Below, piece by piece: positions 6,343-18,967 of a stretch of 22,196 nt of DNA; position 1 is the stretch's first letter, and each line of letters opens with the position of its first letter. Made by a program: the position numbers and the translations under genes. The DNA lies in IMG/VR virus record IMGVR_UViG_3300016474_000800, positions 85,141 to 107,336 of that record; one strand, written 5' to 3'. The DNA comes from a virus. The notes beneath the pieces are model-generated. The model ran no database searches, was not told where the DNA came from, and saw only the letters and a list, made by a program, of their open reading frames with translations.

Positions 6343-7155
6343 ATGTCTTTAAACTTCAATCTACTAAAAGAAAAGCTAAGCAAGATGGACCGACAGAAGT
6401 CGGAGCAGAAGGACTCTTTGTGGCGTCCACCCGAAGGTAAGAGTATCATTCGTATTGTCCCCCGAAAGGAAGATCGTACTTACCCATTTGTGGAACTAAG
6501 TTTCCACTATGGTTTTGGAAAGAAGCCGTATCTTTCGCCGACATCATACGGACGCCCTGACCCGATTGTTGAATTTGGAAAGGCAATCGTCGATGAACTG
6601 TTTCAGAACAACAACAACCCCACCAAAGATGAGATGCGCGAAACTTATGCACGCGCGAAACCGTTCAGCCCATCCCTACGAACATTTATCCCTATCATTG
6701 TACGCGGAGAAGAAGATAAGGGCGTTCGTTATATGAGTTTCGGGCAGACTGTATTTACAGATATTGCCACAATCATGAACGATGAAGATTATGGGGATAT
6801 TACTGATGTAAAGAGTGGCACGGATATCGTGGTGGAATATATTCCAAAAGAGAAGTCTGATACGAAGTATGCAAAGACGAAGGTTTTTGCGAAACGTAAT
6901 CAGTCTCCGCTGGCGGACTCCCCTGAAAAGATTAACGAATTCTTAAACAACCAACCCGATCTAACGGAAATCTTCAAGGAACCGACCTACGAGGAACTAT
7001 TAACGGTGTTGTCAACGTATTTGGGTACGGATGTTCCGGTGGATGAGCCAACGGTTAATGTGCCGTTAACTTCTGCTACTGCCACGAAGTCCGTAGAAAC
7101 CAAGTCCAAGGCCGTTGATGACTTTATGGACGAATTCGACCAAGCCTTTAACTAA
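6343..7155 (+). CDS. Single-stranded DNA-binding protein (T4 gp32-like)
   Basis: LWRPPEGKSIIRIVP, PFVELSFHY, FIPIIVRGEEDKGVR, YGDITDVKSGTD; acidic/aromatic tail DDFMDEFDQAFN; adjacent to recA. Confidence 0.82.
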   Translation: MSLNFNLLKEKLSKMDRQKSEQKDSLWRPPEGKSIIRIVPRKEDRTYPFVELSFHYGFGKKPYLSPTSYGRPDPIVEFGKAIVDELFQNNNNPTKDEMRETYARAKPFSPSLRTFIPIIVRGEEDKGVRYMSFGQTVFTDIATIMNDEDYGDITDVKSGTDIVVEYIPKEKSDTKYAKTKVFAKRNQSPLADSPEKINEFLNNQPDLTEIFKEPTYEELLTVLSTYLGTDVPVDEPTVNVPLTSATATKSVETKSKAVDDFMDEFDQAFN

Positions 7156-7161
7156 TATAAC

Positions 7162-7190
7162 TTGACAAACGATGGATGACTCACTATATT
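7162..7190 (+). promoter_or_regulatory. Sigma70-type promoter for recA/uvsX
   Basis: TTGACA (7162-7167)-N17-TATATT (7185-7190). Confidence 0.75.
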
Positions 7191-7213
7191 ACGTAGTGGG
7201 TCATCCATCGTTT
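7167..7213. terminator. 20-bp stem-loop after ssb (terminator/processing hairpin) overlapping the recA promoter
   Basis: AAACGATGGATGACTCACTA / TAGTGGGTCATCCATCGTTT, one G-U pair, 7-nt loop; U-tract is weak. Confidence 0.55.
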
Positions 7214-7228
7214 ACTATAGGGAATTAT

Positions 7229-8371
7229 ATGACAACAAAAATCGCAAAGAAAACCGTGCCGGGAACAGATCGTGATGAGTTAGCAGAACTTATTGCGGAA
7301 TCTCTGAACAAGATGAACAAAGATAGTGATAGAATTGCATATTTTCTGGACGGCAAGGAAAGCACCCCGACAGACTTTACCGATTTCGTAAGTACCGGTG
7401 CTGCCATTCTTGACGTAGCAATTAGTAATCGACCGCACGGTGGTATTGCTGCCGGCCGCATTACTGAGTTGACGGGACTGGAAGGTAGTGGAAAGTCATT
7501 GATCAGTGCGCAGTTAATTGCAAATACACAAAAACGTGGTGGTGTCGGGGTACTCATTGACACAGAAACCGCAGTCAACCCAGAGTTTTTCCGTGCAATT
7601 GGTATTGATACAAATAAGTTAGTGTACGTACATTTACAGACAGTTGAAGAAATCTTTGATGCCGTCACTACGATCATTGAAAAAGTTCGTAGTGGAAAGG
7701 ACAAAGACAAGTTAGTCACAATCGTAGTTGATTCCGTTGCTGCTGCCTCCACCAAAAAAGAAATGGAAGCAGATTTTGGAAAGGATGGATATGCTACTGA
7801 TAAGGCAATTATCATTTCTAAAGCAATGAGAAAGATTACTGGATTACTTGGTAGAGAACGTATCGCGTTAGTATTTACTAACCAACTTCGTCAAAAGATG
7901 AATGCTCCTGCGTTCTCTGATCCGTGGACCACCAGTGGTGGGAAAGCAATTGCGTTTCACGCATCAACGCGACTTCGATTGTCGCAAATGGGAAAGATCA
8001 GTAACACACACGGTGATGTTATTGGAATAAAAGTCAAGGCAAACATCATCAAAAACCGATTAGGCCCGCCACACAGAACCGCAGAGTTTGAAATTTATTT
8101 CAACCGGGGTATAGACGATACGACAACGTGGTTGTCGATTATGAAGGAAAATAAGTTGTTGAAGCAAACGGGAGCGTGGTATACCTATACCGATCCCGTA
8201 TCTGGAGAAGAAACAAAAATGCAGTCAAAGGAGTTTGCGAAATTTTTGGCAGATGATCCGGAACGTAAAGAAAGACTGTATAATCAAATTTGTGATATTT
8301 TGATCATGCGGTACCAAACCGAATTTGATCCGGATGCAATTAATTTATTGGAGGGATCTGATGATGAATGA
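7229..8371 (+). CDS. recA: RecA/UvsX recombinase
   Basis: Walker A GLEGSGKS, IDTETA, Walker B IVVDSVA, FTNQLR, TSGGKAIAFHASTR. Start moved to 7229 because 7172 lies inside the promoter/hairpin. Confidence 0.93.
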   Translation: MTTKIAKKTVPGTDRDELAELIAESLNKMNKDSDRIAYFLDGKESTPTDFTDFVSTGAAILDVAISNRPHGGIAAGRITELTGLEGSGKSLISAQLIANTQKRGGVGVLIDTETAVNPEFFRAIGIDTNKLVYVHLQTVEEIFDAVTTIIEKVRSGKDKDKLVTIVVDSVAAASTKKEMEADFGKDGYATDKAIIISKAMRKITGLLGRERIALVFTNQLRQKMNAPAFSDPWTTSGGKAIAFHASTRLRLSQMGKISNTHGDVIGIKVKANIIKNRLGPPHRTAEFEIYFNRGIDDTTTWLSIMKENKLLKQTGAWYTYTDPVSGEETKMQSKEFAKFLADDPERKERLYNQICDILIMRYQTEFDPDAINLLEGSDDE

Positions 8372-8543
8372 TGTAGATCTGAACAGGATAGTGCAGTTAG
8401 TGATGAAGGCATATCACAACTCTTATAACCATTATAACCAAGGCACACCGACTAGTGATGTAGTTGAATTATATGTTCGCAGGGCATTAATGGAAGAATT
8501 TGGTTCCACCAAGAACGGCACAAAAACACTTTTACAAGGATAA
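8361..8543 (+). CDS. Small hypothetical protein (~60 aa)
   Basis: GGAGG at 8350-8354 precedes ATG 8361/8364; overlaps the recA end. Confidence 0.6.
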   Translation: MMNDVDLNRIVQLVMKAYHNSYNHYNQGTPTSDVVELYVRRALMEEFGSTKNGTKTLLQG

Positions 8544-8549
8544 GTTATT

Positions 8550-8756
8550 ATGAAAAACAACACCGTATACCAATTCGTATTGTTTTACAACCCAACATCA
8601 AAAGAACTTCACGAAGAAACCTCTCCAGAAATCATTGATAGTGGGTTTGTCATTGCACCGGATGTAGAACGTGCGAAACTGATTGCCTCTAGAAAATTAA
8701 CAGCAGATTGGGATGCGTTTATTACTGATATTCAGGTATTAGTTCGCCCTTTCTAA
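8550..8756 (+). CDS. Small hypothetical protein (68 aa, ends VLVRPF); probably also a 136-aa -1 frameshifted form ending at 8959
   Basis: The ORF ends on C CCT TTC TAA; the -1 frame is open from 8747 to 8959. Confidence 0.75.
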   Translation: MKNNTVYQFVLFYNPTSKELHEETSPEIIDSGFVIAPDVERAKLIASRKLTADWDAFITDIQVLVRPF

Positions 8757-8848
8757 GTAGCCCCAACCCGTTTGAGGGTGTGTTGTTAACGATTCCTCCT
8801 GTCGAGGAAAGGGGTTCGTTAGCAATACGCCCTCAAATTGGTTGGGGC
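8747..8848 (+). promoter_or_regulatory. Candidate programmed -1 frameshift signal (slippery heptamer + stimulatory hairpin)
   Basis: X XXY YYZ heptamer C CCT TTC (8747-8753), 6-nt spacer, hairpin 8760-8848 with more than 30 bp. Confidence 0.72.
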
Positions 8849-8951
8849 ATACCCACTATACCCGGAACGATCTCGCCATACGTGGGACCGGTATCCGTAG
8901 GAAACTCTTACACAACGACAACTCTACGATTTACTGACACTACTACTGACA

Positions 8952-9989
8952 ATGGATAATTTACAAGAAGTTTTCCAAAACATGAAGTTTGGTGTAAATG
9001 AAAAAGGTATGTCGTACAATGGTAATGTGTTAATTATTGACGCATTAAATACATTTCTTCGATCATACGCCGCCGTACCCTCAATGGATGACAATGGAAA
9101 TCACATTGGGGGTATGGTGGGATTTTTTAAGAGTCTTGGATTCGCCATTCGCACGTTTAAACCAACCCGCGTAATTGTTGTTTTTGACGGAAAGGGTGGG
9201 AGTCAACGCCGACGAAAAGTATACCCTGACTACAAAAAGAACAGAAAACCCCCCGTGCGGTTAAATCGGTCGTATGATCTAACCACAGATGAGCAAGAAC
9301 GTGATAACATGAAATATCAATTGGTAACACTCATTGAAATGATTGAATGTTTACCAGTAACTTTGATGGCACTTGATAATGTTGAAGCAGACGATGTTAT
9401 TGCGTACTTGACACAATTAATTACCGCAGAAAACGGGAAGAGTTTGGTATACTCAACTGACAAGGATTTCTTTCAACTCGCATCACCATCCGTTACAATC
9501 TATAATCCAGTAAAGAAAAAAACATTTACTGAGGAAATTATTTTGGAAGAATTCGGTATTCACCCAAAACATTTTCACTTTTTCCGCGCGTTGAACGGTG
9601 ACGCCAGTGATAATATCAACGGTGTGAAGGGAGTTGGACAAATAACCCTCAAAAAGTTGTTACCGGAGTTATCAGATCCGACTGCACAAATGAATGTTGA
9701 TTTTATTCGTCAAAAATATTCTACGAGTAAAAAAGTACCAAAACTAATAACAACGATTTTAAATAACGTAGAATTGATTGATCGTAATTTGTATTTAATG
9801 AATCTACATGAAGGGGTAATTTCGGCAGACTCCCGACTTAAAGTGGCTAACTTGTTTCACCAAACAAAACCCACGTTACAAAAGTATGACTTGACAAAGT
9901 TAATGATACGTTCTAAGTTACTAAATGCGTTTCCATCATATGATACATGGATAATGCAAACGTTTGTTCCTTTAAGTAGATTTCAATGA
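8952..9989 (+). CDS. 5'-3' exonuclease / flap endonuclease (T4 RNase H / PolI N-domain-like)
   Basis: LIIDALN, VVFDGKG, RRKVYPDYKKNR, VEADDVIA, STDKDFFQL, GDASDNINGVKGVG. Confidence 0.93.
   Translation: MDNLQEVFQNMKFGVNEKGMSYNGNVLIIDALNTFLRSYAAVPSMDDNGNHIGGMVGFFKSLGFAIRTFKPTRVIVVFDGKGGSQRRRKVYPDYKKNRKPPVRLNRSYDLTTDEQERDNMKYQLVTLIEMIECLPVTLMALDNVEADDVIAYLTQLITAENGKSLVYSTDKDFFQLASPSVTIYNPVKKKTFTEEIILEEFGIHPKHFHFFRALNGDASDNINGVKGVGQITLKKLLPELSDPTAQMNVDFIRQKYSTSKKVPKLITTILNNVELIDRNLYLMNLHEGVISADSRLKVANLFHQTKPTLQKYDLTKLMIRSKLLNAFPSYDTWIMQTFVPLSRFQ
9891..9919 (+). promoter_or_regulatory. Possible internal sigma70-type promoter for the helicase
   Basis: TTGACA-N17-TAAGTT inside the exonuclease 3' end, about 77 nt before the helicase ATG. 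Confidence 0.4.
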
Positions 9990-18709: not shown

Positions 18710-18717
18710 GGTAGATT
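18689..18717 (+). promoter_or_regulatory. Possible sigma70-type promoter
   Basis: TTGACA-N17-TAGATT, matching the TAnATT -10 seen at three other sites. Confidence 0.5.
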
Positions 18718-18848
18718 ACGAGAGTTGTATAATATGTGGTGTTATAACAGATATTCCCGTCACTCTTAATATTGATTATCGCTTACATTATATTGAGGGA
18801 GCTGGACAACTATGTCAAACTTGTTTTCACAAACTAACTCATGACTAA
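18696..18848 (+). CDS. 50-aa putative zinc-ribbon protein (not in ORF track)
   Basis: MEDNEVDYESCIICGVITDIPVTLNIDYRLHYIEGAGQLCQTCFHKLTHD; two CxxC motifs; GGAG upstream. Confidence 0.75.
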   Translation: MEDNEVDYESCIICGVITDIPVTLNIDYRLHYIEGAGQLCQTCFHKLTHD

Positions 18849-18850
18849 TT

Positions 18851-18967
18851 ATGACAATCGAAATACTCATTGGTGCTGCTATTGCAATGTTCGTTGTTGA
18901 TGTACTGGTGTTTTTTCCAAGTTGGAAGGCGTTTATCAATTACTTTAGAAACAGGAAGAGTACATGA
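18851..18967 (+). CDS. 38-aa single-pass membrane peptide (not in ORF track)
   Basis: MTIEILIGAAIAMFVVDVLVFFPSWKAFINYFRNRKST; starts 2 nt after the previous stop; ATGA overlap with the ATPase gene. Confidence 0.65.
   Translation: MTIEILIGAAIAMFVVDVLVFFPSWKAFINYFRNRKST

Follow-up and report, generated by a model that had tools for sequence, protein, structure and literature searches.

In the current study, we examined a small gene of an uncultured phage, located at positions 8550 to 8756 of a 22,196-nucleotide (nt) stretch of DNA (here called the window) that makes up the final 22 kb of a 107-kb viral record in IMG/VR (IMGVR_UViG_3300016474_000800). We conclude that this gene very probably carries a genuine, conserved programmed -1 ribosomal frameshift, through which it would yield both a 68-amino-acid (aa) core protein and a 136-aa isoform made up of the core plus a disordered tail. 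The conclusion is drawn from sequence comparison, and what carries it is that the complete shift cassette is present, that its nucleotides are conserved family-wide, that the -1 frame is kept open, and that the cassette is lost where the tail lies in frame. The elements concerned are as follows (window positions).

8536-8540, plus strand: AAGGA, the Shine-Dalgarno sequence of the 68-aa gene, 9 nt 5' of its ATG
8550-8756, plus strand: zero-frame gene for the 68-aa folded core, of a family ending in Val-Arg-Pro-Phe-stop (VRPF-stop); it ends CGC CCT TTC TAA
8734-8736, plus strand: AGG, a weakened upstream Shine-Dalgarno-like element (GAGG in relatives), 10 nt 5' of the heptamer
8747-8753, plus strand: slippery heptamer C_CCT_TTC, X_XXY_YYZ in the zero frame
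8754-8756, plus strand: zero-frame stop TAA, directly 3' of the heptamer
8753-8959, plus strand: -1 frame extension of 68 codons plus TAA, for a predicted 136-aa trans-frame isoform with a Thr/Ser/Gly/Pro-rich tail
8757-8951: stretch of 195 nt without a called gene
8760-8848, plus strand: long putative stimulatory hairpin of ca. 40 bp, starting 6 nt after the heptamer
8906-8926, plus strand: motif of the Ser-Tyr-x4-Leu type near the C terminus of the tail
8952-9989, plus strand: 5'-3' exonuclease gene, whose ATG lacks a Shine-Dalgarno sequence and overlaps the tail's TAA at 8957-8959

The slip site and the open frame behind it

A reading of the window from its letters alone (the sequence-only reading) had placed a C_CCT_TTC heptamer in phase with the open reading frame (ORF) 8550-8756 and directly before its stop codon, and re-reading of the sequence bore this out. 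It had also proposed that the nucleotides of VRPF-ending relatives be compared. We carried out this comparison on 21 lineages whose core proteins are ca. 25 to 68% identical to that of the window, and whose tail regions range from 27 to 64% G+C in the ten lineages measured. Lineages were picked regardless of their codons, some through the identity or similarity of their proteins, the others with a codon-neutral DNA pattern for E-V-x-V-R-P-F-stop. The heptamer proved to be kept at synonymous sites in 19 of the 21. The Arg codon preceding it is CGC in 19 lineages and CGG in 2, whereas CGC accounts for 12 of the 51 other Arg codons in the same genes (p = 1.5e-7); the Pro codon of the heptamer is CCT in 20 of 20 cases, compared with 13 of 54 for the other Pro codons (p = 1e-9), and an invariant Pro near the N terminus uses all four codons. 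The Phe codon of the heptamer varies freely (TTC in 9, TTT in 12), as it may do given that position Z of the motif is allowed to vary. Directly 3' of the heptamer stands a zero-frame stop in all 21 lineages, which is TAA in 11, TAG in 10, and TGA in none.

The same site stands out in other comparisons. One co-occurring relative shares an island of nucleotide identity with the window, namely, the 33 nt around the slip site, between flanks that are unlike those of the window. Outside the family, seven chance matches to the pattern use other Arg/Pro codon pairs (for example, AGA CCA, CGG CCG, and CGT CCT), and their -1 frames are open for 2 to 30 codons, except for one that runs into a different long gene. 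Within the family, a single relative (P0004/L026, seen in three runs) encodes core and tail in one frame, and its junction reads GAA ... AGA CCG TTT ATG; heptamer, stop, and GAGG are all gone. Further in-frame fusions were sought among longer proteins and with the P0004 tail as query, and P0004 alone was found. That core and tail share one frame in this relative might be taken to mean that an ancestral single ORF has been broken by a 1-nt indel in the others, through assembly error or gene decay. We find this hardly credible, since independent assemblies from several studies agree in the arrangement of the frames and since the break falls exactly at the slippery heptamer in 20 other lineages; the comparative data contradict it.

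In the window, the -1 frame is open from 8729 to the TAA at 8957-8959, and the other two frames contain 4 stops each; the 68 stop-free codons past the slip site, and the overlap of their stop with the exonuclease ATG at 8952, are as the sequence-only reading had described them. This frame stays open in 3% of dinucleotide shuffles. It was likewise found open in every lineage as far as the contig reaches: for 42 to 130 codons in the 19 lineages that could be read to a stop, and for at least 34 and at least 41 codons in the two ended by a contig edge. The summed log10 p for an open frame in ten lineages, again relative to shuffles, is -16.5. Across the 21 lineages there was thus no early -1 stop, and no synonymous change destroying the heptamer where the shift is needed; either outcome had been named beforehand as one that would speak against frameshifting. 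Length is conserved in steps of three as well. The close variant L024 has ca. 20 substitutions and two insertions in the tail stretch, both of 3 nt, and the gaps between recA and the exonuclease gene in the lineages closest to the window measure 195, 201, and 186 nt, all multiples of three. The gap in the window had been called its largest apparent intergenic one, which did not hold up: among gaps between ORFs of at least 60 aa, 8757-8951 (195 nt) is exceeded by 18710-18963 (254 nt). The latter has no ORF of at least 60 aa on either strand and no Rfam matches at gathering score.

An open frame could also belong to a separate small gene in the 195-nt stretch, with a start of its own inside the hairpin. 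The window offers two such starts in the -1 frame, GTG at 8780 and TTG at 8783, and these are preceded by GAGG at 8774-8777. Both candidates, however, are buried in the 40-bp stem, and in several other lineages there is nothing to take their place: ATG, GTG, and TTG are absent from the whole -1 frame in L028 (73 codons, tail G+C of 27%) and in L056, from the L022 frame past the slip site, and from the 41 codons that L045 offers before its contig ends. A separate gene would also leave unexplained why CGC CCT is fixed and why it is lost in the in-frame fusion. We therefore consider it very improbable.

The downstream hairpin, the upstream element, and the mode of slippage

As the sequence-only reading had claimed, a spacer of 6 nt separates the heptamer from a hairpin that starts at 8760, and refolding reproduced the stems of this hairpin. 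It consists of a basal 9-bp stem (8760-8768/8840-8848), a helix (8770-8792/8816-8838) that includes a 14-bp stretch with three G-U pairs, and a small apical stem. Relative to dinucleotide shuffles, its folding z-score is -6.9 for a 221-nt segment and reaches -11.2 for the 110 nt that follow the heptamer. Folding is poorer on the minus strand; this, together with the G-U pairs, points to a plus-strand RNA. Among members of the window's subgroup, L022 differs in the basal stem by two compensatory pair changes and L030 by one wobble change. There is also variation at position 8769, which is C in the window and A in every aligned contig from four other samples; with A at this position, a pair with T8839 forms and the lower hairpin loses its one mismatch, and a Pro of the -1 frame becomes Gln. 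Over the 21 lineages, folding of the 70 nt that follow the stop gives a mean z-score of -1.52 (p = 4e-4), compared with -0.09 for windows inside the ORF (paired p = 0.0055), and in most lineages a stem begins 3 to 7 nt after the heptamer, although the stem sequences are unrelated.

A conserved element is also present upstream. The Glu codon seven from the end of the gene is GAG in 16 lineages and GAA in 3, whereas GAG makes up 36 of the 114 other Glu codons of the same genes (p = 2e-5), and the conserved GAG puts a GAGG 10 nt 5' of the heptamer in 16 of the 21 lineages.

A hairpin this stable and specific to the plus strand invites another explanation, namely, a noncoding gap in which the hairpin serves in RNA processing or stability (as an RNase III site would, for example) or is itself a small RNA, and in which the open frame behind the slip site is incidental. 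Two population variants that improve pairing while changing the -1 frame amino acid are in keeping with this. An intrinsic terminator was considered and rejected, as no terminator-like site was found in 8000-9500 and no T run (U tract) follows 8848. Against a noncoding gap, an open frame is present again in 20 other lineages, whose sequences are unrelated and go down to 27% G+C, indels come in threes, and an in-frame fusion exists. A search of Rfam 15 gave no family at gathering score, and at a permissive E value yielded a subthreshold match to a plant microRNA precursor, which reflects a generic likeness among long hairpins. On this balance we regard a purely noncoding gap as highly unlikely; a processing role could, moreover, coexist with frameshift stimulation.

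With the frameshift as the preferred explanation, a course of events can be outlined. Ribosomes decoding CCU in the P site and UUC in the A site would be delayed by the hairpin 6 nt downstream and by the adjacent, slowly decoded stop codon. A fraction of them would slip back by one base, the Pro and Phe tRNAs moving in tandem from CCU UUC to CCC UUU, and would then read CUA (8753-8755) as the next codon and follow the -1 frame for 68 codons to yield a 136-aa protein. One start codon would in this way give two proteins, the folded 68-aa core and a 136-aa form with a tail that bears a short motif near its end. The GAGG found in most relatives sits at a spacing where Shine-Dalgarno-like elements may stimulate -1 shifts; such stimulators act 9 to 14 nt upstream (PMC5009743). 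In Escherichia coli, H_HH.U_UU.Y heptamers are among the most efficient in -1 shifting, and C_CC.U_UU.C has been singled out as a high-level site (PMC4066793). For the window phage itself, the efficiency of the shift is something that we infer.

Tandem slippage of both tRNAs is most likely the favored event. A variant of the same conclusion, leading to the same product, is a shifty stop, that is, a single slip of the peptidyl-tRNA for Phe on U_UUY while the stop codon occupies the A site. The zero-frame stop that directly follows the heptamer in all 21 lineages is what a shifty stop would need, and among tetramers tested for shifting in E. coli, U_UU.C and U_UU.U take second and third place (PMC4066793). 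In addition, two lineages without a perfect X_XXY, L044 (L044:1070-1290) and L050 (L050:4620-4830), retain T_TTT plus the stop and keep long open -1 frames (69 and 64 codons, respectively); both have a run of five T's before the stop. The CGG that precedes the site in these two suggests that tandem slippage may not be the sole mode. Nonetheless, CGC and CCT are fixed in 19 to 20 of the 21 lineages, as expected only if re-pairing of the P-site Pro tRNA on CCC matters, and we therefore think a shifty stop rather unlikely to be the principal mode.

Several observations weigh against the proposed frameshift. The slip sites of L044 (CGG TCT TTT TAA) and L050 (CGG CCT TTT TAG) are imperfect, as just described, and L031, L034, L043, and L065 have no significant downstream structure. 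The upper part of the hairpin is not kept in L024, where the 3' arm has 9 substitutions, 5 of them compatible with pairing and 4 disrupting it. At the place of the GAGG the window itself has CAG (CAGG), leaving AGG. The lineages are related to one another, so that counts over the 21 are not counts of independent events; the control codons come from the same sequences. In G+C-rich lineages, the open frame is weak by itself (p = 0.2 in L043). Finally, BLASTP between tails returned no alignment, and the tails can barely be aligned, which means that most of the evidence for a coding tail is the open frame.

Among known systems, E. coli dnaX (tau/gamma) is similar in having a Shine-Dalgarno-like element ca. 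10 nt upstream, an X_XXY_YYZ heptamer, a spacer of ca. 6 nt, and a stem-loop (PMC5009743). In some bacteria, the long dnaX product results from the shift, with a zero-frame stop directly after the site, which is the same arrangement as in the window gene (PMC5009743). E. coli dnaX differs in its heptamer (A_AAA_AAG, versus C_CCU_UUY in the phage family) and in that its shift shortens the product, while that of the window gene would double its length; in the window the upstream element is weakened, and the proteins are unrelated. The IS3/IS911 OrfA-OrfAB systems likewise combine a bacterial -1 shift, a heptamer, and a downstream structure, often with an upstream Shine-Dalgarno-like element (PMC4066793, PMC5009743). 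These, however, are transposase genes that mostly use A_AAA_AAG, and the extension is a catalytic domain.

In phages, lambda gpG/gpGT and the tail assembly chaperones of long-tailed phages are like the window gene in that a small ORF gains a C-terminal extension through a -1 shift close to its 3' end, which gives two proteins with a common N terminus in a fixed ratio (PMC5009743). The window gene differs from these in belonging to another gene family, in having a strong downstream hairpin and an adjacent stop, and in lying among genes for replication, recombination, and nucleotide metabolism and not beside the tape measure gene. In T7 gene 10A/10B, the protein gains some tens of residues when ribosomes enter the -1 frame a few codons ahead of the stop. 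That protein, unlike the one studied here, is a capsid protein with a different, imperfect heptamer. The T7 shift site is of the G_GU type (PMC5009743). Nearly all well-documented phage frameshifts concern virion or tail assembly genes, whereas the window gene stands in a replication, recombination, and nucleotide metabolism block, and the family is spread over many uncultured phages, from AT rich to GC rich. A full dnaX-like cassette together with a natural in-frame control would make this a clean system in which to study C_CCU_UUY shifting on bacterial ribosomes. The shift would also explain a recurrent "intergenic gap" of 150 to 300 nt that gene callers leave empty, for which a joined coding sequence annotation is due.

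The tail, the core, and the exonuclease downstream

Thr, Ser, Gly, Asn, and Pro abound in the tails, which also contain scattered Trp and Tyr. Composition-corrected local alignment gave z-scores of 2 to 4 for several pairs, which indicates that the tail proteins are weakly conserved. Four lineages (the window, L022, L030, and L044) have a GWG motif in their tails; it lies partly outside the stem, so that the stem does not account for it. Ser/Thr-Tyr/Phe-x4-Leu occurs within the last 25 residues of 8 of 20 tails (the window's and seven others), compared with 0.7 expected in shuffles, although this pattern was picked post hoc. Modeling of the in-frame fusion gave a tail devoid of secondary structure, with a predicted local distance difference test score (pLDDT) of 56 to 68; the tail has no alignment depth, which makes this weak evidence. 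Taken together with the model, the composition and the motif lead us to infer that the tail may be a disordered tether with a short docking motif. Two isoforms imply that the phage needs both the bare core and the tailed core, and this offers a handle on the partner and the function of the protein.

The core belongs to a family for which a hidden Markov model profile search of 1.84 billion representatives returned 55 representatives with E values down to 9e-23. Nearly all are 59 to 70 aa long and share the C terminus V-x-V-R-P-F-stop, and those that we looked up are all metagenomic "hypothetical proteins." A search with an alignment of a closer subset returned one IMG/VR locus and nine metagenome loci. 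Pfam and PHROGs gave no matches for the core, for the 59-aa ORF upstream of it, or for the tails. Among GenBank phages, there was no DNA match to 8300-9300 and no tblastn match for two family members, and in the literature searched and GenBank phages we found no description of the VRPF family or of its frameshift. The predicted fold of the core is beta-beta-alpha-alpha-beta (pLDDT of 91), and over its whole 68 aa it matches three viral hypothetical-protein clusters of the ESM Atlas, with template modeling (TM) scores of 0.81 to 0.84. Foldseek against the PDB gave no match with an E value below 0.3, and the best hits of a wide VIA-align 2 fold search against the PDB (Z of 6.8; PurS, ribosomal-protein-like) were at noise level. 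A weak likeness to the YdfE_N domain of RecE-type exonucleases (TM score of 0.62 to 0.67, ESM Atlas) is a lead only.

The window phage comes from freshwater and wastewater metagenomes; none of the sequencing runs listed as containing it is an RNA run, and contigs aligned to the window showed known variants only. Its genes are tightly packed on the plus strand. Upstream of the 68-aa gene lie the following.

6343-7155, plus strand: gp32-like single-stranded DNA-binding protein
7172-8371, plus strand: RecA
8364-8543, plus strand: 59-aa ORF, a gene of its own, which shares its frame with the 68-aa gene in the window but not in L022

Read-through of the TAA at 8541, which would join the 59-aa ORF to the 68-aa gene, was rejected, as L022 has a 1-nt indel there. 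Beyond the exonuclease gene, the window encodes a DnaB-type helicase and then a class II ribonucleotide reductase. The sequence-only reading had described the 68-aa gene as nonstructural, and its surroundings agree across the family: besides RecA and the 5'-3' exonuclease, neighbors include a clamp-loader-like ATPase, AAA_24, DUF669, ribonucleotide reductase, GMP reductase, a metallophosphoesterase, and a DenV-type (Pyr_excise) pyrimidine-dimer excision enzyme, all of them concerned with DNA metabolism and none with the virion. From this neighborhood alone, the protein may have a role in phage DNA replication or recombination. A tail assembly chaperone was ruled out, as Pfam and PHROGs showed no homology and the neighbors are recA and the 5'-3' exonuclease gene and not a tape measure gene.

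In the window, L022, and L030, the exonuclease ATG overlaps the stop codon of the tail and lacks a Shine-Dalgarno sequence, although most window genes have one. Given this overlap and the absent Shine-Dalgarno sequence, it is plausible that in the window's lineage translation of the exonuclease is coupled to the upstream frame and that the frameshift limits it. Shifted ribosomes would be delivered to the exonuclease start codon, possibly by termination-reinitiation. Such coupling cannot be the purpose of the shift family-wide, since tails are kept beside unrelated genes with their own Shine-Dalgarno sequences, as in L028, where the tail ends before such a gene; in L031, 24 nt separate the end of the tail from the exonuclease start.

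A sister subfamily and the loci of relatives

Five further loci (L037:1690-1906, L039:650-1018, L040:1690-1888, L041:1690-1993, and L042:290-624) represent a sister subfamily whose proteins end VRPFCG-stop. The last 33 nt (GAGGTT...GCGGG) are identical in the five, and the block before them has one synonymous difference. The genes end CCC TTT TGC GGG TAA, and there follows directly a conserved +1-frame ORF of 55 to 111 codons with the motif KPDP-x-Y-x-P-x-VG-x-WFW and without Pfam matches. Its conserved residues begin upstream of any start codon, for which reason the ORF may be reached by a +1 slip on UUU_U; UUU_Y is +1 prone in bacteria (PMC5009743). Tentatively, then, the Arg-Pro-Phe end may be a general recoding junction to which different C-terminal modules are attached by shifts in either direction, the majority of members relying on the -1 cassette, and in the window's lineage the -1 shift may in addition set the number of ribosomes arriving at the exonuclease start.

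Sixteen relatives of the locus (L002 to L017; exonuclease ca. 70% identical) have no VRPF gene. The interval between recA and the exonuclease gene is filled in these by a single ORF of 82 to 109 aa, ca. 250 to 330 nt upstream of the exonuclease start, that consists of a homologue of 8364-8543 and a Thr/Gly/Pro-rich tail and whose stop overlaps the exonuclease ATG in the same manner; longer versions contain an in-frame GC-rich insert that folds into a hairpin. This single ORF raised the idea that the 68-aa gene and hairpin are an intron, a mobile insert, or the object of a translational bypass inside one ORF. We considered this and dropped it: in genome contexts unrelated to this one the VRPF gene likewise has a tail of its own, the tails of the single ORFs are not significantly similar to those of VRPF genes (mean z-score of 0.01), there is no group I intron signal, and the sole possible Phe landing codon for a bypass is not conserved in L024.

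L022 (1022-3805) and L024 (1-1825), relatives of the window over 7172-8371, carry a 68-aa gene identical or 65% identical to that of the window. Their recA is interrupted, while that of the window is intact; the interrupted gene is called as a RecA N-terminal part, an ORF like those of intein splicing (a faint Pfam match), a 281-aa ORF with a weak ROS/MucR match, and a RecA C-terminal part.

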